Part shown: positions 6,900-64,000 of the stretch, piece after piece
How positions within the stretch are numbered: the stretch's first letter is position 1
Layout of the letters: each line of letters begins with the position of its first letter
Assembly (NCBI GenBank): GCA_026770705.1
Contig: JANJGN010000004.1
Location: 69,192,001 to 69,256,000 of the forward strand
Length of the DNA stretch: 64,000 nucleotides
Reading direction: 5' to 3'
DNA from: Isurus oxyrinchus
Taxonomy: Eukaryota
Notes under the pieces: model-generated
Told to the model about the DNA's origin: nothing
Database searches by the model: none
What the model saw: the letters and a program-made list of their open reading frames with translations, nothing else
Made by a program: the position numbers and the translations under genes

Positions 6900-8285
6900 A
6901 ATTGGGGGCTGGTCTGGGAAGTTAACAAAATGGGGGATCTCGCACAGGCACTGTTCGTAACAAATTGGGGGCACGGTGCTGAAATAGATCCCACAGATGA
7001 AACGAAAGAATTAGAGTGAGGGAAGTAAATTGTTCCTTTGAAAGCAACTTAAAATAAACCACAAAAAGGTTTTCTTGAGTCTGCCCTACTAAAGTGTAAA
7101 AATGTCCATATTTGATGTCAGTGGAGGGTATGTTAGTTCTGAAAATTTAACAGTTCTGTTGCTCGGAGAGCTAAAAGAGCTAGCGATGCATTTAGGATTA
7201 GAATTTCGCCCAAAAGCCAGAAAACCCAAAATGTTAAAAGGGGTGGCCAACAGTGCAAATTGAGGACGTTGAAATGGATAGAGTAGTGATAGAGAAATTA
7301 GAATTTCAGGAAAGAGAAAAGGAAAGGGAAAGAGAGAAAGAGGAAAGACAGGAAAGGTCACAGAGAGAAGAGAGAGAATTTCAGGACAGAGACAAGGAAA
7401 GGGAGTTTAAACTAAAACAGCTCAAGCTGAAAGGCAGGAATCCTACTGTGTCCCTTGAAGACACCACTAGCTCAGACGTAAGGGCTGAGGCAATCCGGTT
7501 TTCTCATTTAATCCTTAAGTTTCATGAAGCAGAGGTGGAAGCCTTCTTTATCTCTTCCAAGCAGTTAGCACAGCCATTCCAACATTGGTCCCAACTACTG
7601 CAGGGTAAACTTTCAGGAAAGCTCATGAGGTTTACTCCCTCTTGCCTGAGCAAAGTGTCAATGACTAAGAAACAGCAAAAAAGGCTGTTTTAAGCGAGTA
7701 CCAGTTCGTGTCAGGGGCACCGTCAGAAATTCCGTACCCTTGGGAAACAGCCTGACCAGATGTACCTGGAAGTTAAAAGGCTTAAGCAACTTCCTTTTGA
7801 CCAGTTGTTGAAGGCGCTTAAAACAGAAGCCACTTACGAAAAGCTCTATGAAATAATTCTCCTTGAGGAGTTTAAAAACTCCATACCCTTCCCAATAAGA
7901 ACACACCTAGAGAAACAGAGGGTAACAGGGGCCAGACAGGCAGCCACGCTGGTTGATGATTATGAGCTGATCAACAAATCCTTGTCCCAGAAAAGACCCA
8001 CCGTTAGTCATCCCCAATCAACAGGAAAGGATAGAGATTTAGAGTGTGATAGAAAACTGAGCACCCATGGGAGAGAAAGAAATGCTGGGGGCCCTCCCCA
8101 GGATAGAAAGGGCGGTGATGAGATGAAAAGTTAGGCCAAGAAGCCTGTGTGTTTTAACTGCCGAAAGGAAGGGCACCTGCTGGAGGTTACAGGAAAAACC
8201 AGTGGGATTTATTGGGGCACATATTCCCCATGCAAAGAATGGGAGTCAGTCAGAGAGCGTAGCAGACCAAGTTATGGGTTGAGCT

Positions 8286-9861
8286 GTGACCATGAATCCC
8301 TGTAGATGCACTCCTGAGAGTGTGGGTGAGGTTAAACAAATATCTGTGAGATATGTGGGCTTTATATCTGAAGGGAGGGTGGCTACATTTTCCCAGGGTG
8401 AAGCGAGTGTGCCAATAGTGATACTGAGGGATACAGTGGCCAGCCAAACTCTACTGCCAGGAAAAGGCATGACCTTTCCACTAGAGAGTGCAGTAAGTGC
8501 CAAGGTATCGGTAAAGGGGATTGAAGGAGGGGATATGCCCATTCTCTTATACCGGGTGCATCTGGAGAGCAACCTTGTGTCACAACTGTTGACTGTAGGA
8601 GTTGTCCCTGATTTGCCTGTGGACAGGATCAACCTGCTCCTCAGCAATGACCTGGTGGGATCAAAGGCAACAGCATCCCCAGTGGCATCAGAGAAGCCAA
8701 GTGAGATCAGGGAGACACAACAGCTGCAAGAGAAAGTGCCTGGCATTTTCTCTGACTGTGTGGTAATGCAGTCTATGGCCAGACAAGCTCCTTCAGTGGA
8801 GGCTGAAGTGGCAATGCTGGCAGATGATCCTACAGTCTGGTTATCTGAAATATTTTTTGGGAGTCTAGAAGGCTCTAAGGAGGTAATAAATAGATCTTCC
8901 TTGGGAGCGGCCCAGCAAACTGACCCACTGTTAAAAGCATTAGCTCAGACTGCACATGCTGAGGCCGAAGCAGAGGCAGAAACAGTCCTTGATTGCTACT
9001 ACATTAAGAATGACATGCGAATGAAGAAATGGAGACCCCCTCACAGACCTGCAAATGACGAGTGGGCAGTGATCCACCACGTAGTGGTGTCACTGAGGTA
9101 CCATAGGGAAATATTATGCCTAGCTCATGAAATTCCAATGGCTGGGCATGCCGGTATACGCAAAACCCAAGCCTGCATCAGCCAGCATTTTTACTGGCCA
9201 CACCTCCAGAGGGATATAAGATTTTGCAGAGCCTGCCACACCTGCCAGGCTGTGGGAAAACCCCAACCTGCAATACAACCTGCACCAACGATTCCTGTGC
9301 TGGCTTTTGGGGAACCATTCAGCAAGGTGTTAGTGGACTGTGTGGGGCCCCTGCCCAAAACAAAAGGTAGCTACCAGTATATTATTACCATCATGGACAT
9401 GCCTACCCGCTTCCCACAGGCTGTTCCCTGAGAACCATATCTGAAAAAACAGCGTGGGGGGATTAACCTAATTCTTTACCAGATATGGTCTGCCCACCGA
9501 GATCCAGTCAGATCAGGGCACAGATTTCATGTCCAAAATATTCCAGGAAGTCATGGGTAACCTGGGTGTGACCCAGCTGAAGTCTTCAGCCTATCACCTG
9601 CAATTGCAGGGGGCACTAGAACAGTACCACCAGACCCCAAAAACAATGATCAGGGCATACTGCCAAGAGTACCCCCATGACTGGGAGCCCCTTTTCGCCA
9701 CCAGGGATTCACCCAATGAATCCACCGGGTTTACTCCATTCGAATTAGTTTTCGGACACCAAGTGCGAAGGTCTCTGAAACTGATCAAGGGGAAGTTTTT
9801 AGAACAGAAGGAGAAAGTGAACATGTTAGACTTGGTAACAGTGTCCAGGAGCAACTCATGA
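8286..9861 (+). pseudogene. Gypsy pol remnant: protease-like region and integrase (zinc-binding and rve core), frameshifted
   Basis: ORF track 8286-9431 and 9529-9861: AHEIPMAGHAG, FCRACHTCQ, LVDCVGPLP, SAYHLQLQGALEQ, STGFTPFELVFG. Confidence 0.85.
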
Positions 9862-10119
9862 GAGCTTGTGATATGGCTCGAGAACGCTTAAAAACCTCCC
9901 ACTTTTCAAAGGCTGATGAACCAGGTAGTAGCGGGCTTATCCAATTGCGTAATGTACCTAAACGACCTCTTAGTGTACAGCTTCACCTGGGAAACTCACT
10001 TAGAGCAACTGGAAGCCGTCTTTCAGAAAGTACAGTTAGCTGACCTCGTGGTCAATCTCGCAAAGAACAAGTCTGCTCAGGTTCAGGTGAGCTACCTAGG
10101 ACACGTGCTGGGTCAAGAT

Positions 10120-12298
10120 GGCATTTGATAAGGTGCCACATAAAAGGTTATTGCACAAGATAGGAGATCACGGTATTAGCATGGACTAAGGATTGGTTAA
10201 CACACAGAATACAGAGAGTCGAAAGGACTCAAGCAGAAATGAAGATGTTTGTGGTTGTTGGAGGTCAGTCATCTCAGCTCCAGAACATCAGGGTAGTGTC
10301 CTCGGCCCAACCACCTTCAGCTGCTTCATCTTCCATCCATCATAAGGTCAGAAATGGGGATGTTCGCTGATGATTGCACAATGTTCAGCACCATTTGCAA
10401 CTCCTTAGATACTGAAGCAGTCTATGTCCAAATGCAGCAAGGCCTGGACAATATCCAGGCTTGGGCTACCAAATGGCAAGTAGCATTCACGCCACACAAG
10501 TGCCAGACAATAACCATCTCCAATAAGAGAGAATCCAACCATCACCCCTTGATGTTCAATGGCATTGCCATCACTGAATCCCCCACTGTCAACATCCTGA
10601 CGGTTACGATTGACCAGAAACTGAACTGGACTAGCCATATCAATACTGTGGTTACAAGAGCAAGTCAGAGGCTAGGAATCATGTGACGAGTAACTCACCT
10701 CCTGACTCCCCAAAGCCTGTCCACCAACTACAAGGCACAAGTCAGGAGTGTGATGGAATACTCCCCGCTTGCCTGAATGAGTGCAGCTCCCACAACACTC
10801 AAAAAGCTTGATACCATCCAGGACAAAGCAGCCTACTTGATTGGTACCATTTCCACAAACATTCACTCCCTCTACCAGCGACACACAGTAGCAGCAGTGT
10901 GTACCATCTATAAGATGCACCGCAGAAATTCTCCAAGGCTCCTTCGACAGCACCTTCCAAATCCACAACCACTACCATCTAGAAGGACAAGGGCAGCAGA
11001 CACATTGGAACACCATCACCTGGAAGTTCCCCTCCAAGTCACTCACCATCCTGGCTTGGAAATATATCACCATTCCTTCACTGTCACTGGGTCAAAATCC
11101 TGGAACTCCCTCCCTACCAGCACTGTGAGTGTACCTATACCACATTGACTGCAGCAGTTCAAGAAGGCAGCTCACCACCACCTTCTCAAAGACAACCAGG
11201 GGTGAGTAAAAAATGCTGACCCAGCCAGCGAAGTCCACATTTCGTGATTGAATAGTGGGTCTTTTTCAGGTTGGATAGACATAACAAGTAGAGTGCCACA
11301 AGGATCAGTCCCAGGGCCTCAATTATTTACTATCTATATTAACGACTTGGAGGGGGCAGAGCGTAATGTATCCAAATTTGCTGATGATACAAACATAGGT
11401 GGGAGGGTATGTTCTGATGAGGACAAAGGAATCTGCAAGGGGATATAGATAAGTTGAGTGAGTGGGTAAAAACTTGGCAGATGGAATTTAATGTAGGAAG
11501 GTGTGAGGTCATGCACTTTGGTAAAAAAAATCAAAAGGCAGACAATTATTTAAATGGAGAGAGACTCTAAAAAAATGCAGCACAGAGGGATTTACACAAA
11601 AAGTTAGCATGCAGGTGCAGCAAGTAATTAAGGCAAATGGAATTTTGGCCTGTATTGGAATTGGCCTGGTTGGAATTTAAAAATTGTGAAGTCTTGTTAC
11701 AACTGTACAGGGTGTTGGTGAGGCTGCACCTGGAGTACAGTGGACAGTTTTGGTCCTTGTATTTAAGAAAGGGTATGCTGGCATTGGAGGCAGTTCAAAA
11801 GAGATTCACTAGGCTGATTCCTGGGATGAAGGGGTTGACTTATCAAGAACAGCTAAACAAGTTATCCCTTTATTCATTCAAATTTAGAAGAATGAGGGGA
11901 TGATCTTATTGAAATGTACAAGATTCTGAGGGGGCTTGACAGTGTAGATGTTGAGAAGATGTTTCCACTAGTGGGGGAAGCTCAAACTAGGGGACGTACT
12001 TACAGAATAAGGAGGCACTCATTTAAAACTGAGATGGGAAGGAATTTCTTCTCTCAGAGGTTAGTGAAAGTATGGAATTCTCTACCCCAGAGAGTTGAGG
12101 AGGCTATATCACTGAAAGTATTTAAAGAGGAGCTAGATAAGATTTTTGAAATATTGGGGAGTTGACAGCTATGAGGAGCTGGCACGAAAGAGGAGTTGAG
12201 GTCAGGGGCAGATCAGCCATGATCTTATAGAATGGTGGGGCAGGCTTGAGGAGCCGAATGGTCTACTCTTGCTCCTATTTCTTTTGTTCTTACGTTCG
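10120..12298 (+). mobile_element. 5'-truncated CR1 LINE inserted in the Gypsy RT, itself split by a second LINE
   Basis: AFDKVPH at ~10122; resumes at 11250 with VPQGSVPGP, KFADDT, HLEYSGQFW, WNSLP; typical 3' UTR ending in a TTCTT-rich tail at ~12295. Confidence 0.88.
10222..11249 (+). mobile_element. 5'-truncated LINE (CR1/L2 group) nested inside the CR1 copy
   Basis: MFADDCT RT motif (10360-10380), IDQKLNWTSHI, SWNSLP; 3' end shared with the SINE at 59185-59565. Confidence 0.85.
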
Positions 12299-13044
12299 TA
12301 AAGATAAGTACTACCCAGGGCTGCAAAGATACAAACAATCTCACAGTTCTCCATTCCTACAACAAAACGGGAAATCATGAAGTTCTTGTGGATGTGTGGT
12401 TCTACCGTAAGTTCATCCCAAACTTCAGCACAGTAGCCGCCCCGCTGACAGACATATTACAGAAAAAAGCAAAGGTAGTATGAACTGAGAAATGCCAGAC
12501 AGCTTTCAAAAAGCTGCAAGCCATTTTAATAGGCAAGTGACATCAGGATCGGGGCTGTCCTCCTCTAGGAAGACAAATCAGGGATAGAGAGACCAATCAG
12601 TTACTTCCCCCAAAAAACTAAACAAGCATCAGAAAGGGTACTCCACTGTTGAGAAGGAAACCCTCGGTTTATTAGTTGCTCTCACACGCTTTGAGATATA
12701 TTTCCGAAATGGATAGAGAGAGACCGCAGTTTATGCTGACCACAACCTATTAACCTTTGTGGAAAGGTTTAAGACCCAGAATGCCAGGCTATTCCATTGG
12801 AATTTGTTTCGCCAACCATACCACCTAAAAATCACCCACTTTGCCAGGAAATCAAATGTGATTACAGGCACCCTGTCCAGAACTTAAAGAGACCCAGTTA
12901 GAACTGAAGAGATAATATTGGCCAAGGGTAGGAGAATGAATGTGTGTCTGTGTTTTTTTTTGCCTTGTAACAAAATGAAGATTAACCAAAATGGCCAGCA
13001 TGTTTAATATAAAAACAAAGAGAACTGCGGATGCTGGAAATGCA

Positions 13045-14112
13045 AAACAAAAACAGAATTACCTGGAAAAACTCAGCAGGTCTGGCAGCATCGGCGGAGA
13101 AGAAAAGAGTTGACGTTTCGAGTCTTCATGACCCTTCGACAGAACTTGATTTCGAGTCCAGGAAAGAGTTGAAATATAAGTTGGTTTAAGGTGTGTGGGG
13201 GGGGGGGGGCGCGGAGAGAGAGAGAGAGACAGAGGTGCTTGTGTAGACAAACAAGCAGTGATAGAAGCAGATCATCAAAAGATGTCAGTGACAATGGGAC
13301 AAAAGAACACATAGGTGTTAAAGTTAAAGTTGGTGATATTATCTAAACGAATGTGCTAATTAAGAATGGATGGTAGGGCACTCAAGGTACAGCTCTAGTG
13401 GGGGTGGGGGGAGCATAAAAGATTTTAAAATATTTAAAAATAAGTGGGAAAAGAAAAATCTGTAAAATTTATAGGGAAAAAAAAAAGGGGGAAAAAAAAG
13501 GGGGGGGAAACAGAAAGGGGGTGGGGATGGGGGAGGGAGCTCACGACCTAAAGTTATTGAATTCAATATTCAGACCGGAAGGCTGTAAGGTGCCTAGTCG
13601 GAAGATGAGGTGTTGTTCCTCCAGTTTGCGTTGGGCTTCACTGGAACAATGCAGTAAGCCAAGGACAGACATGTGGGCAAGAGAGCAGGGTGGAGTGTTA
13701 AAATGGCAAGCGACAGGGAGGTTTGGGTCATTCTTGCGGACAGACCGCAGGTGTTCTGCAAAGCGGTCGCCCAGTTTACGTTTGGTCTCTCCAATGTAGA
13801 GGAGACCACATTGGGAGCAACGAATGCAGTAGACTAAGTTGGGGGAAATGCAAGTGAAATGCTGCTTCACTTGAAAGGAGTGTTTGGGCCCTTGGACGGT
13901 GAGGAGAGAGGAAGTGAAGGGGCAGGTGTTACATCTTTTGCGTGGGCATGGGGTGGTGCCATAGGAGGGGGTTGAGGAGTAGGGGGTGATGGAGGAGTGG
14001 ACCAGGGTGTCCCGGAGGGAGCGATCCCTACGGAATGCCGATAAGGGGGGTGAAGGGAAGATGTGTTTGGTGGTGGCATCATGCTGGAGTTGGCGGAAAT
14101 GGCGGAGGATGA
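13045..14112 (-). repeat. Left inverted arm of the PLE (copy of the GIY-YIG region and 3' UTR/pLTR)
   Basis: Mirror of 16099-17165; ORF-track translations match on both sides. By eye only two differences were found: a substitution (13090 vs 17120) and a homopolymer length (A10 vs T9). Confidence 0.97.
13108..13146 (-). ncRNA. Second copy of the hammerhead-like motif, in the left arm
   Basis: Exact reverse complement of 17064-17102. Confidence 0.75.
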
Positions 14113-16670
14113 AATTCCACCCCTCATCTTTCGAACCCACCCAGGATTACCGGTATCTCCGGGACATAAAACGTTTCTCAGACTGCTGTTCCCGTCACAT
14201 TCTGAAATCCACACTCAGTGCCATGCGCCGCCGTATGAACACACTCGACCTCTCCCTCCAGCAGCACCGCCGTACCCTTTTTCAAAGCTGCGCGTGCCCC
14301 CAGTTTCATTTTATCCTTCGGCTCATCCGACGCCTCAACAAGAAACTTTTTCTCTTTCTCTCAACTGCTAAGGAACGCAAGCTCCAACAACTCATCGACA
14401 CCAACACCCATCTAGGACCCTCCACCCCAGCCTGTCCCTCCGTCCCCACCCCATCTTCCAATCCCAGCCCCAGCCGTGTATTCACTATACCCCCTGACCT
14501 TCCCCTCTCCGATGCTGAACGTTCAGTGCTCAGCAAAGGACTTAGTTTCATACCCTTACGCCCTCACCTCAATGAATTTCGGGCTCGGCATGATACTGAA
14601 CTCTTCTTTCGCCGTCTTCGTCTCCGGGCTCACTTCTTTGGGCAGGAGTCCTCTCCCAGTTCAACGGATCCTTTTACCCATCTCCAATATTCTCCCTCCA
14701 CCTGGACCCCTCCCTCTGGATTCTTACCTTCTCTTGATCTTTTCATTGAGAACTGTCGGCGCGACATTAGTCGTCTCAATTTCTCTGCTCCTCTCACCCA
14801 TTCTAACTTGTCTCTCTCTGAACTTACTGCACTCCATTCTCTCAGGTCCAACACTGACATTGTCATCAAACCCGCTGACAAGGGTGGTGCTGTTGTTGTC
14901 TGGCGCACTGACCTCTACCTCGCGGAGGCTGAGCGTCAACTCGCAGACACTTCCTCCTACCTCTCCCTGGACCATGACCCCACCACTGAACATCAAGCCA
15001 TTGTTTCCAGGACTGTCACTGACCTCATCTCCTCTGGGGATCTCCCTCCCACAGCTTCCAACCTGATAGTCGCCCAACCTCGGACGGCCCGCTTCTATCT
15101 CCTACCTAAAATCCACAAACAGAACTGCCCCGGTAGACCGATCGTCTCAGCTTGCTCCTGCCCCACAGAACTCATTTCTCGTTATCTTGACTCCCTTCTC
15201 TCTCCCCTTGTCCAGTCCCTTCCCACCTACATCCATGATTCCTCTGACACCTTACGTCACATCAACAATTTCCAGTTCCCTGGCTCCAACCGCTTCCTCT
15301 TCACCATGGACGTCCAATCCCTCTACACCTCCATCCCCCACCAGGATGGTCTGAGGGCCCTTAGCTTCTTCCTCGAACAGAGGCCCGAACAATCCCCATC
15401 CACCACTACTCTCCTCCGTCTGGCTGAACTTGTTCTCACGTTGAACAATTTCTCCTTCAACTCCTCTCACTTTCTCCAAATAAAAGGTGTGGCTATGGGT
15501 ACCCGCATGGGCCCCAGCTATGCCTGTCTCTTTATGGGATATGTGGAACATTCCTTGTTGCAGTCCTACCCCGGCCCCCTTCCACAACTTTTTCTCCGGT
15601 ACATCGATGATTACTTCGGTGCCGCTTCATGCTCTCGTCGGGACTTGGAAAAATTTATTAATTTTGCTTCCAATCTCCACCCCTCCATCATTTTCACGTG
15701 GTCCATCTCTGACACTTCCCTTCCCTTCCTTGACCTCTCTGTCTCAATCTCTGGTGATAGACTGTCCACTAATATCCATTACAAACCCACCGACTCCCAC
15801 AGCTACCTCGACTACAGCTCCTCACACCCCGCTTCCTGTAAGGACTCCATCCCATTCTCCCAGTTCCTTCGCCTTCGTCGCATCTGTTCCGATGATGCTA
15901 CCTTCAAAAACGGTTCCTCTGACATGTCCTCCTTCTTCCTTAACCGAGGTTTTCCACCCACGGTCGTTGACAGGGCCCTCAACCGTGTCCGGCCCATCTC
16001 CCGCGCATCCGCCCTCACGCCTTCTCCTCCCTCCCAGAAACATGATAGGGTCCCCCTTGTCCTCACTTATCACCCCACCAGCCTCCGCATTCAAAGGATC
16101 ATCCTCCGCCATTTCCGCCAACTCCAGCATGATGCCACCACCAAACACATCTTCCCTTCACCCCCCTTATCGGCATTCCGTAGGGATCGCTCCCTCCGGG
16201 ACACCCTGGTCCACTCCTCCATCACCCCCTACTCCTCAACCCCCTCCTATGGCACCACCCCATGCCCACGCAAAAGATGTAACACCTGCCCCTTCACTTC
16301 CTCTCTCCTCACCGTCCAAGGGCCCAAACACTCCTTTCAAGTGAAGCAGCATTTCACTTGCATTTCCCCCAACTTAGTCTACTGCATTCGTTGCTCCCAA
16401 TGTGGTCTCCTCTACATTGGAGAGACCAAACGTAAACTGGGCGACCGCTTTGCAGAACACCTGCGGTCTGTCCGCAAGAATGACCCAAACCTCCCTGTCG
16501 CTTGCCATTTTAACACTCCACCCTGCTCTCTTGCCCACATGTCTGTCCTTGGCTTACTGCATTGTTCCAGTGAAGCCCAACGCAAACTGGAGGAACAACA
16601 CCTCATCTTCCGACTAGGCACCTTACAGCCTTCCGGTCTGAATATTGAATTCAATAACTTTAGGTCGTGA
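14109..16670 (+). CDS. PLE polyprotein: reverse transcriptase + Cys-rich linker + GIY-YIG endonuclease (853 aa from the junction ATG; native N-terminus probably truncated)
   Basis: KPADKG, FYLLPKIHK, GRPIVS, TMDVQSLYT, GVAMGT, RYIDD, LPFLD; linker CPRKRCNTC; VYCIRCSQCGLLYIGETKRKLGDRFAEH...GLN. No stops or frameshifts. The ORF track extends it to 13986 through antisense-arm sequence. Confidence 0.93.
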   Translation: MKFHPSSFEPTQDYRYLRDIKRFSDCCSRHILKSTLSAMRRRMNTLDLSLQQHRRTLFQSCACPQFHFILRLIRRLNKKLFLFLSTAKERKLQQLIDTNTHLGPSTPACPSVPTPSSNPSPSRVFTIPPDLPLSDAERSVLSKGLSFIPLRPHLNEFRARHDTELFFRRLRLRAHFFGQESSPSSTDPFTHLQYSPSTWTPPSGFLPSLDLFIENCRRDISRLNFSAPLTHSNLSLSELTALHSLRSNTDIVIKPADKGGAVVVWRTDLYLAEAERQLADTSSYLSLDHDPTTEHQAIVSRTVTDLISSGDLPPTASNLIVAQPRTARFYLLPKIHKQNCPGRPIVSACSCPTELISRYLDSLLSPLVQSLPTYIHDSSDTLRHINNFQFPGSNRFLFTMDVQSLYTSIPHQDGLRALSFFLEQRPEQSPSTTTLLRLAELVLTLNNFSFNSSHFLQIKGVAMGTRMGPSYACLFMGYVEHSLLQSYPGPLPQLFLRYIDDYFGAASCSRRDLEKFINFASNLHPSIIFTWSISDTSLPFLDLSVSISGDRLSTNIHYKPTDSHSYLDYSSSHPASCKDSIPFSQFLRLRRICSDDATFKNGSSDMSSFFLNRGFPPTVVDRALNRVRPISRASALTPSPPSQKHDRVPLVLTYHPTSLRIQRIILRHFRQLQHDATTKHIFPSPPLSAFRRDRSLRDTLVHSSITPYSSTPSYGTTPCPRKRCNTCPFTSSLLTVQGPKHSFQVKQHFTCISPNLVYCIRCSQCGLLYIGETKRKLGDRFAEHLRSVRKNDPNLPVACHFNTPPCSLAHMSVLGLLHCSSEAQRKLEEQHLIFRLGTLQPSGLNIEFNNFRS

Positions 16671-17063
16671 GCTCCCTCCCCCATCCCCACCCCCTTTCTG
16701 TTTCCCCCCCCTTTTTTTTCCCCCTTTTTTTTTCCCTATAAATTTTACAGATTTTTCTTTTCCCACTTATTTTTAAATATTTTAAAATCTTTTATGCTCC
16801 CCCCACCCCCACTAGAGCTGTACCTTGAGTGCCCTACCATCCATTCTTAATTAGCACATTCGTTTAGATAATATCACCAACTTTAACTTTAACACCTATG
16901 TGTTCTTTTGTCCCATTGTCACTGACATCTTTTGATGATCTGCTTCTATCACTGCTTGTTTGTCTACACAAGCACCTCTGTCTCTCTCTCTCTCTCCGCG
17001 CCCCCCCCCCCCCACACACCTTAAACCAACTTATATTTCAACTCTTTCCTGGACTCGAAATCA

Positions 17064-17102
17064 AGTTCTGTCGAAGGGTCATGAAGACTCGAAACGTCAA
17101 CT
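17064..17102 (+). ncRNA. Minimal type I hammerhead ribozyme-like motif with variant core
   Basis: AGTT-CTGTCGA-A-GGGTC-ATGAA-GACTC-GAAAC-GTC-AACT: stem I AGTT/AACT, stem II GGGTC/GACTC, palindromic ACGT in place of stem III, GUC cleavage triplet. Core reads CUGUCGA rather than CUGANGA. Confidence 0.75.
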
Positions 17103-18430
17103 CTTTTCTTCTCCGCCGAAGCTGCCAGACCTGCTGAGTTTTTCCAGGTAATTCTGTTTTTGTTTAGCATGTTTAATATGTTATACTGTACATGGTACCT
17201 TTGTAATTGATGCCTCTGGCAATGGCAAATTATTAGCCTCATTTTTGCCATATATGCAGCTGTCCCTAATAAGCATGAATGATATAAAGGATTGAGGTTG
17301 TGCTGATGATGCACCACTGGGTTACTGTATCTTTAGATCTTGGCCAGTACGGACACAGCCCTAATAAGAAGACACAGACTAAGAGTGGCACCATTATACC
17401 CGAAAGAATATTAAGCAAAATTTGAATGTGAAAAAACGGGCACATCGTTCCTGTGCAAATCTTATTTGAGGAGTTGCAGGATCGATTGCAAGAGGAGCAA
17501 ACATGTAGCTAAGTGTACACAAAATATAAATTTCACTCATTATAGCGTCTGCAATAGGTTGGAAATCTGATTTCAGCCCCAAAGAGACTTGGGGGCCAGT
17601 TTTCCTCCCCTTCGTCCCAGTGTGAGTCAGGCAATGTGCACTTGAAAGTGATCTAATTGCAACATACTCGAGCATGGATGACCTTCTATGTACAGTTCAT
17701 TTGCAGGGGTTGATGTTAAGCCAGTGGGCACCACAGAGCGGCAGTCCTTAAAAGCCTCCATTGGTGCAAATTCTTGCTGGCTTCTTGTCATTCTGGCTGA
17801 CATCAAGTCTGAAGAGGTTGTCAGCTGTCACTTCTCAGATTTCCCATTCTCTTTTGGAAAACCCCCTTCACACAAGGCAGCTGGGACAGCATGGAAATAA
17901 CGTAGAAGGCATCAGGATGTGGCTCCCCCATCATTTACATGAAATGACACTGAATAAATAAATCTCTACTTGTGATGGGGGCATCCTGGAAGGGAAAAAC
18001 AGTAAAAGCCGGGAAATAAGAACACTGGTACAAACTGGTCTCATCTACCTTAAAATAGAACACCAATAAAAACTGGCAAATAAGAGGTCTGGTCCGAGTT
18101 GTTTTTTTTCCCTTCTGGGCTGTTCTGGTGCAAAGGTCTTTTGTGTCAGAGCCAAATCAGCCCTCCATGTTTAATATTCCTTCACAGCAAATAAAATTTG
18201 CTAGTAATGTAACTTGTAAATGGCTGCTGCAACTGTATTCTGGGAGAAATTCAGCTGTGTTTGTAACTTGGTGTTGAGAAGTCAAGATGCACATCACAGT
18301 GAGTACAATATAGCTGATCACAACTCGGCATGTGATTATTAATAATCTGTTGCCAAATCCACCTGGCGCTAGAAACAATTAGGGATAGTCAACAAGCCCT
18401 GAATTACTTGGTCATCTGGTCATATTGCTG

Positions 18431-24222: not shown

Positions 24223-27200
24223 TATAAGACCGTAAGATGTAGGAGCAGAAGTAGGCCATTCAGCCCATCAAGTCTGTTCCACTTTGTAATGAAATCATGG
24301 CTGATCTGATAATCCTCAACTCCACTTTTCTGCCTTTTCCCAATCACCCTTGATTCCCTTACTGATTAAAAATCTGTCCATCTCAGCCTTGAATATACTT
24401 AATGACCCAGACTCTGCAGCCCTCTGTGGTAAAGAATTCCACAGATTGACTATCCTCTGAGAGAGGAAATTCTTCCTCATTTCTGTTTTAAATGGGCAAC
24501 CCCTTTACTCTGAGATTAGGCCCTCTGGTCCTAGACTCTCCCACAAGGGGAAACCTCTCAGCATCTACCCTGTCAAGCCCCCTAAGAATTTTATATGTTT
24601 CAATAAGGTCGCTTCTCATTCTTCTGAACTCCAATGAGTACAGGCCCAACCTACTCAATCTCTCCTCATAAAAAAATCCCTCCATACCCAGAATCAACCT
24701 AGTGAACCTTCTCCGGACAGCCTCCAATGCCAGTATATCTTTCTTTAGATAAAGGGACCAAGCTCTTCACAGTTTTCCAGGTGTGGTCTAACTAGTGTCA
24801 TGTATAGTTTTAGCAAGACTTCTCTATTTTTATACTACATTCCCTTTGAAATAAAGGCCAACATTCCATTTGCCTTCTCTATTACTTGCTGAACTTGTAT
24901 GTTAGCTTTTTGGGATTCATGCACAAGAACTCCCAAATCCCTCTGTACTGTAGCCTTCTACAGTCTTTCGCCATTTAAATAATATTCAGCTCCTCTATTC
25001 ATCCTGCCAAAGTGCATAACCTCACATTTTCCCATATTATATTCCATCTGCCAAATTTTTGTCTACTCACTTAACCTGTCTATATCCCTCTATAGGCTCC
25101 TTGTGTAATCCTCACCACTTGCCTTCCCACCTATTTTTGTGTCATTTGCAAACTTGGCGATTGTACATTCACTTCCCTCATCCAAGTCATATATATGGCT
25201 ATATTGTAAATAATTGAGCCCCAGCACTGATCCCTGTGGCACTCCACTAGTTATAGGTTGCCATCACAAAAATGCCCCCCTTATCCCAACTCTCTGTCGT
25301 CTATTAGTTGGCCAATCTTCTATCCATGCTAAAATACTACCCCCAGCACCATGGACTCTTATTTTATTAAGTAGCCTTGTGTGCGGCACCTTATCGAATG
25401 CCTTTTGGGAATCCAAATATGTTATGTCTACTGGTTCCCCTTTATCTATCTTGCTTGTTACCTCTTCAAAGAATTCTACTAAATTTGTTAGGCATGATTT
25501 CCCCTTCATGAAGCTATGCTGACACTGCTTGAATAGATTATGTATTTCTAAATTCTCTGCTATTACATTCTTTATAATAGACTCCAACATTTTCCCAATA
25601 ACAGATGTTAAGCTAACTGGCCTATAGTCACCTGTTTTTTGGCGCCCACCCTTTTTGAATAAGAGTGTTACATTGGCCGTTCTCCAATCCTCTGGGACTT
25701 TTCCAGAATCTAAGGATTCTTGAAAGATTGCTATCAGTGCATCAACTATCTCTGTAGCTACTTCCATTAATATCCTAGGATGCAACCCATCAGGTCCAAA
25801 GGACTTTTCAGCTTTTAACCCCACTAGTTTCCCTAGTAACTTTTCTCTAGAAATAGTTATTTTATTTATTTCCCCCCCTCCCCCTCCTGCTTTTGCCCCT
25901 TGATTATTTAGTATTTTTCAAATGCGACTAGTATCTGTTACCGTGAAGACTGGAGCAAAGTTTTTATTCAACTTCTCTGCCATTTCCTTGTTCACCATTA
26001 TTATTTCCCCAGCTTCATTCTCTAAGGGGCCTATGTTCATTTTGGCCTCTCTTTTACTTTTTATATATATTTAAAGAAGCTCTTACTGTCCGTTTTTATA
26101 TTACTTGCTTGCTTACCCTTAAAGTTAATTTTCTCCCTCTTTTTTTTGGTCATCATTTGTTGTTTTTAAAACTTTCCCAATCCTCTGGCTTACCACTAGT
26201 CTTTGCCACATTGTATGTTTTTCCTTTCAATTTGATATTGTCCTTAACTTCCTTGGTTAATCATGGTTGGTTTATCCCCTTCCTTGAAACCTTCTTCCTC
26301 ACTGGGATAATCTTTGTTGTGAGTCATGAACTATTTTCTTAAACATCTACCATTGTTCATCAACCGTCTTTTCTGTTAAACTGCTTTCCCAGTCTACTCC
26401 AGCCAACCCTGCCCCCATTCCATTGTTTCCCTTATTTAAGTTTAGCACAGTTGTTTCCGACCCAAGTTTCTCACTCTCAAACTGAATGCTAAATTCTACC
26501 ATGTTATGGTCACTGTTTTCTTGGGGATCCTTTACTCTGAGATCATTTATTAAACCTGCCTTATTACATATTACCAGATCCAAAATAGTCTGATTCCTGG
26601 TTGATTCACAACATATTGTTCTAAGAAACTATCCCAAACATACTCTATGATTTCTTGTTCGTGTCTACTTCTGCCAATTTGATTTTCTCAATCTACATGA
26701 AGATTAAAGTCACCCATGATTAATGTACTGCCTTTTTTACATATCCTCATTATCTCCTGATTTACTCTCTGTCCTACAGTATAGCTATTGTCAGGACCCC
26801 TATAGACTATTCTCACCAGTGTCTTCTTCCCCTTGTTATTCCTTACCTCAACCCATACGGATGCTACATCTTCCGATCCAAGATCCTTTCTTGTTATCGT
26901 ACTTATTCCATCTCCTACTAACAAAGTTACCCCACCACTCTTTCCTTCCTGACTGTGCTTTCGAAAAGTCACATACCCCTGAATATTTAGTTCCCAGTTT
27001 TGATCTCCTTGCAACCATGCCTACATAATGGCTATAAGATCGTATCCATTAACCTCTATTCGTAACATTAATTCATTTATTTTGTTCTGAATAATACATG
27101 TATTTAAGTAAAGAGTCATTAATTTTGCCTTTTGAACATTTTTATCCCCTTTTGACCCTACCTGCTGCTTTTTTTTTATATTTGCACACTCTGTCCCTTC

Positions 27201-27401: not shown

Positions 27402-27807
27402 TAAAAGCAAAATACTGCGGATGCTGGAAATCTGAAACAAAAACAGAAATGCTGGAAAAACTCAGCAGGTCTAACAGCATCTGTGGAGGGAGAAACAGAG
27501 TTAACATTTCAAGTTCATATGGCCCTTCTTCAGAGCTGAAGAGAAGTGGAAATGTGATGAAATTTATACTGTTTAAGGGGGGTAGGGCAGGTGGAGCTGG
27601 ATAGAAGGCCAGTAATAGGTGGGGACAAATGAGGGACTGACAAAGATGTTATGAACTAAATGACAAAGGGCGTGCTAACTATCAGCACCTCTTTTAGCAT
27701 TAACCACTATCATTAACACACTCTTAGTCCTTTAGTTCATTACATCTTTGTTATATGGACTCAAAACGTTAACTCTGTTTCTCTCTCCAGAGATGCGGCT
27801 TGATTGC
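27402..27807. mobile_element. Non-coding miniature PLE made of two inverted pLTR fragments
   Basis: Left end is homologous to 13011-13146; 27716-27750 and 27757-27800 are inverted copies of left-arm segments; TSD ACAGTTCAAGTGAA (27388-27401) / ACAGTTCAAATGAA (27808-27821). Confidence 0.85.
27499..27537 (-). ncRNA. Degenerate hammerhead motif in the mini-PLE
   Basis: Minus strand AGCT-CTGAAGA-AGGGCCATATGAACTT-GAAATGTT-AACT; canonical CUGAAGA core with decayed stems. Confidence 0.55.
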
Positions 27808-28919
27808 ACAGTTCAAATGAAGCCCATCCCACCAGAACAGTTCCCTTCTACCCCAGTACTGGTGCTAGTGCCCCATGAACTGAAACCCATTCCTTCCACA
27901 CCAATCTCTGAGCTACGCATTTAACTCCTTGACTTTATTTACCTACCCCAGTATGCCTATGGCTCAGGTAGCAATTCCAGAGATTATTACTTTGGATTTT
28001 AATTTAGTTCTTAACTGTTCAAATTCTTTCAGCTGAACCTTCTTTCTAGTCCTAACAATGTCATTGGTACCAAGTTCCAAGCAGGAAAGGGGTCCAGTGG
28101 GGTGGTTGCCCATGTGAACATGCAATGAGAGGTCTGCAGAGTTGATGACTGGCTCCTGGGGAGCGAGCTAAGAATGGGCATGGTAGGAGAGAATGGTGAG
28201 AATGACCAAGGGCAGAGTGAGGTGAAAGGGTGGGAGGGTGAGGGTGAGATGGTATTGGTAGAAGGGACGGCGAGGGTGGTTGGTGGGGACTCAGGCAGAC
28301 ACGGACTCTAAGGGTAGGAAGGAGAAGGTCGGGTAGGTGAATGTGGATGGGGGTGGAATTTGCGGGAAGGTGGGGAATATGCACGATCACCTGGGCATCC
28401 CTGAAGGAAAAGGATTCTGGCTGGTAGGTAACAGTCGGGGGGTGGAAGGTGATGTCATGGGGTCGACAGTGATGGGGGACCGGAAATGGGTGACGGGGTC
28501 TCGTGGTGGGCGAGATCAGGTGCTGCATAGGAGTGTGATTAGTGGGTGGGCAGAGATGCAGGTCAGCTCAGATGGACAACTGAAAGAGAACCCAGCAAGC
28601 AGCATTGAAAATGCTCAGGGCATTGAGATGGATGTGATGGGGGAAGGATCCGCATGCGTGGAAGAGGGCGTGAACAAGGCTCCGAAATGCCCTGCCACAC
28701 ACACGCTTCTCCCTCCAGAGTCACTCGTGGGCCGGGCTGCATGCAGCTGAACTGCTAAGGTGGGTGAGGGGCTGTTGGGGAGGGTGCAGGCGACTGACTT
28801 GCAAAGCCTGTCACTGAAGCTGAAAGACACCATTATCCAGTGAAAGTGAATAAATTTTCAAATTTTAAAGTGACAAAATGTGTTCGCCCATACAACCAAC
28901 TGTGATCAGAATTTCTTAA

Positions 28920-30623
28920 CTTTTCTATGCCTTAGACTTCTAGGTGCTGCCCTGATATCCACAGCAGTGGTGGAGACAGCCTGTGCAATGGTTGGCCCTG
29001 TTGCCTCTGATGACTTCGGTGTGGGTCCTCCATACTGCCAAGGCCTTGAGGGCCCCGGCTTGCTTTGGCTGTCCTCTTGTAGGCCTGCTGCTCCGTCTGC
29101 AGTGACAGAGGACGAGGTTGAGGGGATCACAGACAAAAGGGACTCAGAGGAAGAGGATAGCCTCTGAGATTCCTGATTAGATGTCCCAGGGGTGTCCAGC
29201 TGCTGCTCCTCCTCCCTTTGGGTGCCCTAGGGTCCCGGTCTGACTCCTTAAGGGGAAGGAGCACCTGGAGTGACATTGAGGTGCCCGTTTCCCTCTCCCT
29301 CTGGCACTGCAGGAACTCACCCATGGCTACTGCGATGTAGTTCTGCATACTTCTCCATGTTCTGCTGGACCAAGATCTCTGTTGTGTCCACCATCCTTAC
29401 CATGGAGACCTCCATACACGCACATACAGGCACCATGTCATCAGAGAGCAGGCCGTCGCACTCTTCTGACTCGTGAACCACTCTGTTGAGGGCTTTCAAC
29501 AGCTCTGTGTGATGCTCCCCTGCCTTTTGCTGACTCTCCACGATGAGTAGGAAGGCCAAATCCAGAGGCCTATCATATGACTGACCTCACAGATTCCTCT
29601 TCCCCAGCAGTCCTCCGAGTGCAGGGGAGCTCAGCTGAACATGCCTCCTCCTGCTGTGGACATGTGTCCATACGATGACCACCAGATTGTGAACTCAAGC
29701 CTGCTCTAGAACTGGGTCTCACCAAGGTGTGTGTCTCTGCACTGGTGCAGTGTGTGGGTATGCGCTGTGATGGGTCTTCCAGGCTGCTTATTTCCAGCTC
29801 TTCAATGGAGGAGGTTTCCTCTTGGCTGGGGGTGAGGACCTGAATGGAGCTGAGGGACTGGCTGACTGAAGGTGTTGGTCACTTGTCAGAGCTCCCTGTG
29901 AATCAAAGTAGAGATAATTAGTGCATGGCAGCGCAGTCAAAAGCAGGAGAGAGAGTACTCTCAGTTGTGTTGAGAGAGGGATGATGCAGGATCCTCATGT
30001 GGGTGTTTACCGCAGACCTCACCGTCACCGCAGGCACGATCCACATCCTCATCAGTCAGTGCGATGGCATGCCCTTCAAATCGAGGAAGGAGTCTAATGT
30101 GGGCCACTCCACCCCCGCTCTTGGACCTCTCCCTGCTGCTTTGAGCCAGTCTCTCCGGCATGAACACAGGTGAACAGAGTGTGAGCAGGATGCATGGAAT
30201 GTTGGTGTGGTGAGCGGAGCCATGGGCAGGATGAGGAAGCGAGCTCTAGAGGATATAAGCCTGATGGAGATGTGAGGAGGTGTGTGAGAGTTAGCGGTGT
30301 TGTCCCTTGAGGTGTGAGATCCCTGCGGATGTGTGATGGGTTTGTGAGTGTGTGAGTTGACAGTGATGACAAGAGTGACTTACCCTGGCGGGACAGATGA
30401 CACCATTCATCCTCTTGCGGCACTGGGTAGTGGTCCTCTTTTGCAAGGCATTGGCGCTGACCACCGCTGCCAGTGCTTCCCATGCTGGATTGGTGACTTT
30501 GCTTGCTGGTCTTTGCCAGTACAGGGCTGAGGACATCACAGTGGGAAACCACCACGTCCACAAGGCGCACAAGGGACGCGTCATTAAACCAGGGTTTACA
30601 GTCTTTTTGCCTTTCAGGGCCAT
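28920..30623 (-). pseudogene. Harbinger Myb/SANT-like gene, three exons, disrupted
   Basis: PASKVTNPAWEALAAVVSANALQKRTTTQCRKRMNGVICPAR followed by a GTAAGT donor; same exon layout as 62061-63760. Confidence 0.8.
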
Positions 30624-33080: not shown

Positions 33081-33990
33081 TGTCATGAAACTACCATTTC
33101 TTTCCATCATATTTTCTGGTTTATTGTGAAGTAGGTTTATGGGGTTAAGTATAGGTGTGTCTGTGTGTAATTTAATTGCATTTTGTAGTCAAGTAGACTG
33201 CAAGCTTTAAATCATCAAAAGAAGCTCGGTGCCTGACATGCTAAAGAGTAAACGTGGATGCTGTTTAGCATGTAAGGCATGAAGGGAATTTGCATTTTTA
33301 GATAAATGAAGTGATATTTGGATTTCGAATGGATCTTAGTCTATTTAAAACTAGCCAGAAAAGCAAGGCTAAGGAATGTGTTTATTTTTCCCAAAGGTTA
33401 CTGGCAATATATAGTAGCAACATTAAAGTTTTTATGAGAAAGATACAATTTCAAAGATCTATGGAACAATAGAATTTACATATTAAAAATAGAGAAAAAC
33501 ATATATATGGGAGAATGAAAGGCCATGCAAGATCTAACAGGAGTATGTGAAATAGCCTTAACAAAGCCTCCAGCATTTGTGCACGAGTCTGCTATGTGCT
33601 GAACCTGAAGATTGGGGAAAACCATTTGAAATTCCACTGCCCAGGGTATTGTGTTAACTTGCTGAGTTTGTTTTAAATCTAAAATCTATTTTGGATCGTT
33701 ACCTTAAAACGGGTGGAACTGGGAGTCAGGTTAATTAGGACTTTTAAGAGTTATTATAGTAGTAATTAATTTGTAGTCTAATATATGTGCTTGAAATCTT
33801 TTATATTTTGTTAATAAATGTTTTAATTTAATTTTTAAAATACTCTAAAGTTCTTGGTGGACTTATTATTTCTGAATTCAGTGCACACATCTTGTAATAA
33901 ATACAAATTGCAAAACCATTGTGATGGCGCGACCAAGTTTCCCTCGTGGATTTGGTCCACCTGGCATGCATCATCTGCCATGTCATAACA
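33081..33990 (+). repeat. 5' LTR
   Basis: TGTCATGAAACTACC...TGTCATAACA; diverged direct repeat of 38108-39002. Confidence 0.95.
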
Positions 33991-38107: not shown

Positions 38108-39002
38108 TGTCATGAAACTACCATACTTTTATCATAATATTTTTCTGGTCTATTGTGAAATACATTTATGGGAGTAAGTATAGTTCGGTCTATGTGTGAT
38201 TTAATTACATTTTGTAGTCAAGTAGACTGCAAGCTTTAAATCATCAAAAGAAACTAGGTGCTTGACATGCTAATGAGTAAACATGGATGCTGGCTTAGCA
38301 TGTAAGGCATTTTTAGATAAATGAAGGGTTATTTGGATTTCAAAGGAATCTTAGTCTGTTTACAACTGGCCAAATGAACAAGGCTAAGGAATGTGTTTAT
38401 TTTTCCCAAAGGCTACTGACAATATATAGTGGCAACATGAAAGTTTTTATATTATGAGGAAGATACAGTTTCAAAGTCATGTGGAACAATAGCATTTACA
38501 TATTAAAAAGAGAGAAACATATGTAAAGGTTATATGTCAGAAGGCCATGTAAGATCTAACAGGAGTGTGTAAAAAAGCCTTAATGAAGCCTCCAGCGTTT
38601 GTGTATGGGTCTGCTATGCAATACACCTGAAGGTGGGGAAAAGCCATTTGGAATTCCACTGTCCAAGGTATTGTGGTAACTTGCTGAGTTGGTTTTAAAT
38701 CTAAAATCTATTTTGGGCCGTTGCCTTAAAGGGGGTATAATTGGGGATCAGGTTAATTAGGAATTTTAGGAGTTACTACAGTATTTGTAGTCTTATGTAT
38801 ATGCTTCAAATCTTTTATATTTTGTTAATAAATATTTTAATTTAATTTTTAAAACTCTCTAATGGTCTTGGTGGACTTATACTTCTGAATTCAGTGCACA
38901 CATCTCATAATAAATACAAATTGCAAAGCCATTGTAATGGCACAACCAAGTTTCTCTTGTGGATTTGGTCCACCTGGCAAATGTAACTGCCATGTCATAA
39001 CA
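38108..39002 (+). repeat. 3' LTR
   Basis: TGTCATGAAACTACC...TGTCATAACA; preceded by AAAGAAGAGG. Confidence 0.95.
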
Positions 39003-59671: not shown

Positions 59672-59784
59672 TTTCTCTTTAGTTTTGAAGAAGAGTCATA
59701 CGGACTCGAAGTGTTGCCTCTGTCTTTCTCTCCACGGATGCTGTCAGACCTGCTGGGTTTTTCCAGCAATTTTTGTTTTTGTTT
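59672..59784 (+). mobile_element. Solo PLE pLTR fragment with a decayed hammerhead
   Basis: Homologous to 17060-17165; flanked by CATGATCCTA (59662-59671 and 59785-59794). Confidence 0.85.
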
Positions 59785-61777: not shown

Positions 61778-64000
61778 GGGCGGAATCATCCCAGATTTGC
61801 ACTAAGTGTGGTAGCGGGTGGGAATAAAGTCGTTTTACCCCCCGGCCTCAATGGCAAGTTTTCACACTGTATTGTTCCATTCTCAGCACATCCCACCTCA
61901 TTAATGATGCAGTTCCAGGAAATACACCAGGTCGTTGGAGGGGCAGCCTCTGATTCGCCCCACCATCACCTCAGGCCTTCTGTAATCTGGGCGTCATATT
62001 TAAAGGGCACCCCTGCACAGAGCTGGCTCTTTCTAAGGGATCACAAGCTGCTGGAAAGTCATGGCTGCCCCCAGATTTAGTGACGCCTCCCTCGGGTGCC
62101 TGCTGGATGTAGTGGAGGCCCGCTGTGAAGACCACTACTCCTGCTCTGAGCAAAGACCAGCAAGCAAGGTCACTAATTCAACATGGGGGGCAGTAGCAGC
62201 AGTAGTCAGCACCAACGCCCTGCAAAAGAGGAAAGCCACCCAGTGCCGAAAGAGGATGAATGATCTCCTCTGTTCCATCAGGGTAAATCACCCTTCTCAT
62301 CACCATCAACTCACACACTCACAAACCCATCACACATCCACAGGGATCTTACTGCCAGTTCAAGGGACATCACTATTCACTCTCTCACACACCTTCATCT
62401 GCCCTGCAGGTCGTGTCCTCATCTCGCCCATGGCACCACTCACCATCCACACATGCCAGGCATTCTTCTCACCTGGCCTGGCAGGCATCTTGCTTGCATT
62501 CTCTCCATCTCTATTCATGCAGGACAAGCTGGCACACAACAAAAGAGAGAGGTTGCAGACTGGTGAAGGGATGCCCGACATCAAGGTCCTCAAAGACTTT
62601 GAAAATAGGGTCATCCAGCTGGGCGGCAAAGATCTGGACCATTCCTGTGCTGACAGTGAGGTCGGTGGTGCTTAACCAAGTGAGGATCCAGCAAGGCAAC
62701 ATCCATCAGACAACCATGCTGTGAGTGAGTTCCCTTATTCCGCAGTGCCCTGCCATGCTCTAATTATATATCCTTGCTTTTGCAGGCACATGTGAGAAGC
62801 AGCCAAGAGGGGGACCATGACCCAGGTCCTCGACTCAAGCCCTGAAGACACCTTGGAAGAAGAATCTGATGACACCCTAACTGAAGACCCATCACAGCGC
62901 TCACCCACACCCTCCACCAGCGCTTAGACACAGTCCTTGTTGGGGGCTAGTTCTAGAGTAGCCTCGGGTTCACAATCTGGCGAGCACATTGCACTGTCTG
63001 ATCCACAGCAGCCAGAGGCAGAGACTTCGCAGGTGTCCGGCACTGGGAGGACTGCTGGAGGCCAGAAGTCTGCTGAGTCTGAGTCAGATGATGAGCCTCT
63101 GGACTTGGTTATGTCTCAGTTGCTGGAGCTGCCAAGGCAAGCTCAGGGACATCAGGAAGGAATGTCTGCTGCACCCCTCAGATTGCAAGGCACAATGGAG
63201 GAATCCATTTGCTTTCAGACTGAGGTGATAGTGCCGGGATGCCAATGATCAACACTGATAGGATGGCAACAACCATGGAGACCTTCGTCCGGGACATCAC
63301 TCCTGCACTGCTGCACAGACTGAACTCCATCACTAAAGCCATAGTTGGCTTCCAGCAGTATCAATGTGAGAGGGGTGTGGGGCAGTTCGATCTCACTCCA
63401 GCTTCCCCTTCTCCTCAAGGAGTCAGCCAGGGGCCCTTGGACACCCATAGGGAGGAAGGTCAGTAGATGCTCGCCCCAGGGCCATCCACCCAGGTGACAT
63501 GGGGAGTGTCTGGCCCATCCGACTCCTCTCTTCCTATGACCCAGGCATCTCCAGATCCACAAACCAAGGAGGGTGACACTGCCACACAACAGGACCCCGA
63601 AAGCAGGCTGGGGCCCTCCAGGTCTCAGTCCTCCAGACAACGCCTGCCAAGGTCATCACAGACAAGGCATGGCAATCAGCAGGCTGCCTCCACCTCTGCT
63701 GTTAGTATCGGGGGACACCAAGACTTAGTGGCAGGGTTAGAAAGGTTAAGGAGATGTAGTTGCACAGACAAGACCTTGATCACTTGTACATAATGTTCAC
63801 TATTGTAAATAAATTCCCAAGAATGTCTCCCCAACTTTGGCTCCTTGTTATGTAGAGCAGCGTTCTTGTCACTCAGATGTGAAAACTGAGCTCCTGCACA
63901 AGATAAAAGCAGGTGTCTCAGTCCTGGGTCTCTTCCCTGTGTTTTGTGTAACCTTCAACCAAAGTGATAGTCCAGCTTCACACTCACTGGACACATTAGT
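61778..64000 (+). mobile_element. Harbinger derivative with Myb/SANT gene; runs off the right edge
   Basis: TIR GGGCGGAATCAT at ~61778; homologous to the reverse of 28900-30887. Confidence 0.85.
62061..63760 (+). pseudogene. Myb/SANT-like gene: exons ~62061-62282, 62523-62679 and 62786-~63760; premature stops
   Basis: MAAPRFSDASLGCLLDVVEAR...TWGAVAAVVS...TQCRKRMNDL; GT at 62283, AG at 62521-62522 (phase 0); stop at 62673-62675. Confidence 0.8.

Follow-up and report, generated by a model that had tools for sequence, protein, structure and literature searches.

A junction-made start codon in an inverted, 5'-truncated Penelope-like element of Isurus oxyrinchus

Endonuclease-bearing (EN+) Penelope-like elements (PLEs) typically insert as inverted, 5'-truncated copies with a tail, according to the accessible sections of PMC8557442. 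These sections describe a single ORF with a reverse transcriptase (RT) together with a GIY-YIG endonuclease at the C-terminus, a CxxC inside the GIY-YIG, 5' truncation, an inverted truncated 5' copy and a one-sided tail of 30-40 bp. All of these features recur in an insertion that we analysed in a 64,000-nucleotide stretch of the Isurus oxyrinchus assembly (contig JANJGN010000004.1), hereafter the window. It departs from the EN+ PLEs in PMC8557442, as far as that source could be consulted, in that the copy has no direct upstream pLTR and the arm joins about 60 codons into the ORF. The accessible part of the same source makes no mention of a junction-made ATG. The element shares with Neptune and Nematis the CX2-5CxxC linker between RT and endonuclease, but unlike theirs its target is not a microsatellite.

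Two further systems are close. For PAc, a Poseidon element of Anolis, the available portion of PMC11167929 reports an AT-rich target, matched here, and a hammerhead motif near the 3' end, where our insertion has a hammerhead-like candidate, and the geometry of our insertion fits the both-strand cleavage and extension and the two RT starts proposed there. By contrast, Poseidon has no linker finger; in PAc, moreover, the ORF starts in the ribozyme (PMC11167929, same portion). Penelope copies of Adineta vaga likewise show inverted pLTRs, duplications of 9-10 bp, a 31-bp tail and a 5' junction with microhomology; they differ in having palindromes at the inverted junction, where the window copy has a 2-kb spacer between its arms, and in chimeric ORFs that arise from asparagine-rich inserts (PMC3846280, parts accessible). 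The inverted architecture is thus already described, and the window copy is an ordinary example of a described insertion type. LINE-1 5' inversions made by twin priming also involve priming a second time, from the opposite strand, and joining through microhomology, as we propose for the window copy. L1, however, inverts a non-redundant internal piece, whereas the window copy has the 3' kilobase twice, each time with the element 3' end. Our literature search, by title and start of abstract and reaching only a minority of the subscription papers, returned nothing on junction-made start codons in PLEs, and a term search of the accessible text of preprint 10.64898/2026.07.22.740005 found nothing relevant. 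As set out below, the locus is very probably a recent insertion, dead on arrival, of a Neptune/Nematis-type PLE with a high copy number, in which the junction ATG is real but incidental.

Insertion architecture and the junction ATG

The insertion, an endonuclease-bearing PLE with a Neptune/Nematis-type linker, spans 13011-17165 of the window and is laid out as follows.

12997-13010, forward strand: left target-site duplication, 14 bp, identical to 17166-17179
13011-13044, reverse strand: PLE tail of 34 nt, on the left arm only; tails of 30-40 bp are known from the accessible parts of PMC8557442 and PMC11167929
13045-14112, reverse strand: left arm, an inverted 5'-truncated copy (linker, GIY-YIG and 3' region), from comparison with 16099-17165
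14109-14111, forward strand: junction-made ATG in place of a native Leu codon; the arm supplies its A, the microhomology its TG
14110-14112, forward strand: 3-nt microhomology TGA; the arm matches through 14112 and the family body from 14110
16099-17165, forward strand: right arm, formed by the 3' portion of the sense copy; no tail at its end
17166-17179, forward strand: right target-site duplication, 14 bp, matching the left copy

The left-arm copy is joined head-to-head to the 5'-truncated sense copy, and 13045-14112 matches 16099-17165 in reverse complement at 1,066 of 1,068 bases; one substitution (13090) and one indel (13477) are the only arm differences in 1,068 positions. The two copies are truncated at unlike points (about 1.1 versus 3.06 kb). 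Both termini of the insert are element 3' ends that abut the 14-bp duplication, offset by the 34-nt tail. The terminal repeats of an EN+ PLE are present here as 1,068-bp inverted arms plus the 34-nt tail, and the copy is not full length: its arm stands in inverted orientation and meets the body at a native Leu codon, and about 60 residues are gone. The ATG lies at the inner end of a long inverted repeat. A decayed LTR retrotransposon lies upstream of the insertion in the same orientation.

A first-pass annotation had proposed that the inversion junction created an in-frame start codon for the truncated ORF of a copy that had lost its native 5' end. The ATG at 14109, with A at -3, indeed opens 853 codons that end in a stop at 16668-16670. 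To trace its origin, contigs of four of 24 runs were compared with 12900-16090. Two of these, X4 and X5, are DNA runs; X4 is possibly the source sample and so not independent, and X5 is labelled as another organism. Family contigs that match the body continue upstream of 14110 with native sequence (37 loose ends in X4, agreement 0.79; 35 in X5, agreement 0.95), which confirms the loss of the native 5' end. Translated by hand, these loose ends read R-L-T-P-R-G-F-Q and carry CTG (Leu) at 14109-14111, a reading that fits columns P(-5), G(-3), F(-2) and L(0) of the homologues; in 31 of the 57, Leu stands where the window copy has its new Met. A consensus check for a native ATG at 14109 thus found CTG in both DNA runs, which rules out a native start at this position and shows that the ATG was made by the junction. 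On the other side, contigs that match the arm leave the window behind 14112 (331 in X4, 399 in X5) and continue with the arm's own sequence. Since the arm matches through 14112 and the family body from 14110, the TGA belongs to both sides, and its proposed role as a 3-nt junction microhomology holds.

The arms are 99.8% identical, and a contig bridging 14112/14113 was found in none of the 32 pieces listed of about 260,900, DNA runs included, which is a weak test. Both points would suit an inverted arm produced by assembly or fold-back artefact, a reading to which we give next to no credence: the locus has a 14-bp duplication, a one-sided 34-nt tail, two arm differences and a microhomology join. 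Duplication, one-sided tail and join are hallmarks of real PLE insertion in the accessible sections of PMC8557442. The target duplication and the tail are our grounds for taking the junction as real even though no contig bridges it among those listed.

Coding content and the lost N-terminus

The ORF and its motifs occupy the following positions.

14109-16670, forward strand: 853-codon ORF of a 5'-truncated PLE, with a partial N-terminal helical domain, KGLxF, DKG, RT, linker and GIY-YIG
15132-15626, forward strand: RT core (Pfam RVT_1, residues 342-506), E 5.9e-08, above cut-off; YIDD at 498-501
16263-16289, forward strand: CX4CxxC zinc-finger-like linker, CPRKRCNTC, residues 719-727, a Neptune/Nematis hallmark
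16374-16478, forward strand: GIY-YIG core with CxxC between the two motifs (VYCI-CxxC-YIG), E 7.9e-04, below the curated cut-off

The single ORF combines an RT with a C-terminal GIY-YIG, as in EN+ PLEs. It also carries the DKG motif (ADKGG at 256-260) and a CCHH finger, with CxxC at 761-765 and histidines downstream. Its RT falls nearest to telomerase when judged on the model of homologue P0008 (49-51% identical), for which telomerases rank 1-7 in a PDB fold search; by sequence, no PDB relative was found, the one match being at E 0.64. All RT and endonuclease motifs examined are intact, and 853 of about 915 residues are kept. The closest named homologues, from Chiloscyllium and Rhincodon, are 64-69% identical, which by itself points to a cartilaginous fish as host. 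In the accessible part of PMC8557442 the linker finger (CX2-5CxxC) marks Neptune and Nematis and is absent from Penelope/Poseidon. The linker found here sets the element apart from Penelope/Poseidon and points, by this motif, to a Neptune/Nematis-type PLE. Near-private alleles of the window copy lie at 14233, 14808 and 14853. Among 30 variants listed, ten change a residue relative to other copies of the family, mostly at variable columns; residue 376 is His, and Lys stands there in 52 of 57 homologues. A metagenome scan with residues 1-200 gave 279 pattern matches, none of which was confirmed. Separately, 120 loci from a 16-nt pattern scan were discarded as chance matches because tblastn matched none of them to the ORF.

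Alignment of 57 homologues of 860-1000 aa (out of 121) allowed the loss to be measured. A median of 60 residues (range 30-157) precedes the column of the new Met in these 57, and the N-terminally complete homologue P0152 has 64. The lost part carries K-T-R-x2-S-H-x2-F-L-x2-C-x6-P-x-G-F, in which F, C and P are conserved in all 57 homologues, T and G in 55 each, K in 53 and H in 52. Conservation reaches 90% or more in seven columns of the lost part, versus four in the first 122 retained residues. In the AlphaFold model of P0008 the lost segment corresponds to helices 4-18 and 24-55, the block having a pLDDT of 80-96, so a protein started at 14109 would be without two predicted N-terminal helices. 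The 40 residues that a start at 13989 would add are unrelated to the lost N-terminus. The available text of PMC11167929 describes the N-terminal region of PAc as a putative nucleic-acid-binding domain, with residues 27-173 forming a predicted dimer surface; by analogy, the same roles may apply in the Neptune/Nematis-type clade.

Where the native ORF begins was approached through the pLTR, which also holds a hammerhead-like motif in each arm.

17064-17102, forward strand: minimal hammerhead-like motif in the 3' pLTR region, found by pattern and read by eye
13108-13146, reverse strand: minimal hammerhead-like motif of the left-arm copy, found by pattern and read by eye; no Rfam match

The putative motif at 17064-17102 shows features listed in PMC4209133, with a 5-bp stem II in the fold. 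The overall fold of the region is no better than that of shuffles (z 0.40), and an Rfam search gave three sub-threshold chance matches and no hammerhead. One core position departs from the consensus, CUGANGA. Candidate native starts in the pLTR are an ATG in the ribozyme (stem II) loop, whose frame closes after 18 codons, and an ATG followed by a donor-like site. When the stored proteins were compared with these candidates, a matching word occurred in only one, at an internal position.

Chance expectation and prospects of translation

The first-pass annotation had gone further and suggested that such junctions are a route by which 5'-truncated PLEs stay coding, detectable if in-frame junctions exceed one third among inverted copies. 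We rejected the test as posed in this way, for any join whatever shares its frame with one of the antisense frames. The proper null is the chance of an ATG before a stop, which amounts to 33-44%. We joined all antisense arm lengths in silico to body starts and scored an in-frame ATG before a stop. Such an ATG was found in 40.6% of 866,400 simulated joins, in 954 of 2,888 (33%) at the observed body start and in 44% of the 10,511 joins whose microhomology was 3 nt or longer. Within two codons of the join an ATG was rarer, at 3.4% (97/2,888, observed body start) and 6.3% of the 10,511 microhomology joins. The arm is 66% purine; A precedes 13 of its 60 antisense TGA sites, and in nine of the 60 there is a purine at -3 as well. 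The junction ATG is thus not much more than chance would give, though one so close to the join is a 3-6% event.

Nine other arm-body joints of the family were readable among those listed, with more than 750 more joints in the family besides. Six were taken from one 15-row table, after setting aside three short within-arm skips and six rows from the stretch end, and three from a 12-row table; four of the nine have unknown letters between the two sides, and for one more no statement is made on this. An in-frame ATG occurs in two of the nine, against 36% expected (P of 2 or fewer 0.31), so this small sample gives no sign of the enrichment that had been anticipated. In all nine the start lies at residues 153-623, with the truncation reaching into the RT region or beyond it.

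These counts bear on the idea that inversion junctions offer 5'-truncated PLEs a general way, favoured by selection, to remain coding and supply protein in trans. Raw material for it is abundant, as a third or more of random joins are ATG-led, and the window copy is a clean example. Set against this are the lack of enrichment in the nine joints and their start residues, and the native upstream sequence present in family contigs, which leaves no evident need for such a route. For RT initiation the Anolis element depends on a pLTR-ORF junction RNA, according to the accessible part of PMC11167929, and such a copy has none. We regard this idea as extremely improbable, and the proposal that junctions keep 5'-truncated PLEs coding is not borne out, given the absent enrichment and the loss of about 60 conserved residues. 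It is further opposed by 23 upstream ATGs with rivals in better context and by the position of the start codon in a 1-kb stem, as the following features make clear.

13989-13991, forward strand: first in-frame arm ATG, flanked by G at both -3 and +4; a start here would yield 893 aa
14099-14101, forward strand: out-of-frame ATG whose context is strong (A at -3, G at +4); it opens a frame of 90 codons that overlaps with the junction ATG

The frame upstream of the junction is open, as had been stated, over a length that we correct from 41 to 42 codons (from 13983; stop at 13980), and the further in-frame ATGs expected from the antisense arm are present at 13989 and 14061. The arm holds 23 ATGs before 14109, of which 21 do not lead into the ORF; the out-of-frame ATG at 14099 lies 10 nt before 14109. 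By the Kozak rule, the contexts of 14099 and 13989 are better than that of 14109. Among 1,099 possible 5' ends in the arm, 14109 is the first ATG for only 10, while with 67 a different in-frame ATG comes first, and with 1,022 the first ATG opens a frame that fails to reach the ORF. In an RNA of the arm and the whole ORF, the leader, ATG included, would pair with 16099-17165 into a 1-kb duplex, and the inner 200 bp of the stem are calculated at -465.9 kcal/mol.

As to transcription, the native pLTR points away from the ORF. The pLTR normally carries the promoter, and bidirectional promoter motifs have been argued for (PMC3846280, accessible parts). The decayed LTR retrotransposon upstream is co-oriented, and read-through from it is therefore possible. 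Two runs that are presumed to be RNA contain family sequence. The sole contig from these runs at the junction, among the 32 pieces listed, is X19 record 11 (290 nt; run guessed to be RNA); it aligns over 14110-14364 and has a further 35 letters off the window. Since it leaves the window at 14110 and does not enter the arm, it is not a junction contig, and contigs of this kind show neither strand nor level.

It is conceivable that the locus is transcribed from the arm or flank and yields a chimeric protein of 853-893 aa with some RT or endonuclease activity, as an unselected accident. The open frame with its three in-frame ATGs, of which 13989 combines a purine at -3 with G at +4, the intact catalytic motifs and the family sequence in the two presumed RNA runs are compatible with this. 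The 21 of 23 upstream ATGs that miss the ORF, the better-context competitor at 14099, the pairing of the leader with the 3' end of the ORF, the departure of X19 record 11 at 14110 and the missing N-terminal helices all weigh against it, and we consider it unlikely. The ORF is probably not translated from 14109. Drosophila siRNAs match inverted regions of Penelope copies (PMC3681739, accessible portion), and a read-through RNA is more likely to form a 1-kb hairpin that triggers silencing than to serve as an mRNA.

Insertion mechanism, age and significance

The reading that we prefer, a recent dead-on-arrival insertion, can be followed from the target site to the ATG. The target would have been nicked on both strands, 14 nt apart, and each nick may have primed a cDNA (1,102 and 3,056 nt) from RNA of one source. 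The two cDNAs would have begun at the two RT start sites, which lie a tail's length from each other, and both would have stopped early, after which their 3' ends could have been joined through the 3-nt microhomology. The ATG would then be a by-product, the base before the shared TGA happening to be A. This scheme agrees with PAc, a Poseidon element of a different clade, for which the accessible part of PMC11167929 reports that both strands are cut and extended and that two RT starts explain the tail; a 5' junction with microhomology is reported for the Adineta vaga copies (PMC3846280, accessible parts). Self-priming on the antisense template, an alternative to two-ended priming drawn from the same parts of PMC3846280, fits less well, as it suits the 2-kb spacer between the arms less well.

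The single substitution between the arms leads to an expectation of about 1.2 substitutions in the ORF. The frame is intact because the copy is young, and no selection has to be assumed. The apparent age could have been lowered by gene conversion between the two arms. At the ten listed variable positions of the arms, both arms carry the same letter, and four of these are minority alleles in X4 by ratios worked out by hand.

A more consequential outcome, in which the antisense arm acts as a new leader for an N-terminally shortened PLE protein of 853-893 aa that retains RT and endonuclease activity but, for want of its own pLTR-ORF start RNA, works only in trans, seems to us a very long shot. 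If true, the trans-acting protein would mobilise other RNAs or poison dimers of the full-length protein, and near-full-length inverted copies would be an overlooked pool of proteins, a third or more of joins being ATG-led.

Taken as it stands, the junction ATG matters little. The locus does offer a genomic footprint of two-ended priming, with a 14-bp stagger, a 34-nt tail, a 3-nt join and shared minority alleles, and this footprint, in what appears to be a Neptune/Nematis-type element, fits in vitro results from another clade. It also advises caution in annotation, as a long ATG-led PLE ORF may fall short of full length. Should the chimeric protein turn out to be produced and active, it would be wrong to dismiss truncated copies as dead, and what the N-terminal helices of PLEs do could be tested directly.

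Sequence context of the PLE insertion

The Penelope-like element (PLE) at 13011-17165 lies about 110 nt past the last piece of a decayed LTR retrotransposon, and the two elements are co-oriented. The surrounding features are as follows.

about 7700-12890, +, decayed LTR-retrotransposon pieces
7694-8131, +, SCAN, LTR-retrotransposon piece
in 8283-9428, +, integrase zinc-binding domain, LTR-retrotransposon piece
near 12570-12886, +, RNase H-like reading (by eye), LTR-retrotransposon piece
25264-25914, -, RT fragment
453-2357, 28591-30516 and 62150-63456, dispersed repeat family
33112-33966 and 38141-38979, dispersed repeat family

The dispersed repeats share 74-91% identity and occur in direct and inverted orientation. 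A second PLE-end insertion with inverted ends (27403-27810) is older and much shorter, with about 81% identity to the tail region, and a further fragment was observed at 59725-59784.

Contig depth and variants of the family

Across 12900-16090, the summed contig depth, which does not equal copy number, peaks at the 34-nt tail (13011-13044); at the 5' end of the truncated ORF it is approximately one fifth of that in the 3' region. Such a profile is expected of a very high-copy, mostly 5'-truncated PLE family. In the contigs of sequencing run X4 aligned to this interval, C>T and G>A are the main change types (395 of 549 places).

Terminal motifs of the two arms

A minimal hammerhead-like motif was identified in each arm.

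17064-17102, +, motif of the right arm
13108-13146, -, motif of the left arm

The core, CUGUCGA, is identical in the two arms and departs from the hammerhead consensus, CUGANGA. Since both arms carry it, the sequences indicate that this variant of the putative hammerhead motif is inherited from the source element. The sole substitution between the arms (13090 / about 17121) falls within an ATG of the element-sense pLTR, the terminal repeat region. A donor-like CAG|GTAATT is located 29 nt downstream of this ATG, together with a pyrimidine-rich tail, and these elements would constitute a candidate 5' exon and intron, an arrangement resembling that of Penelope.
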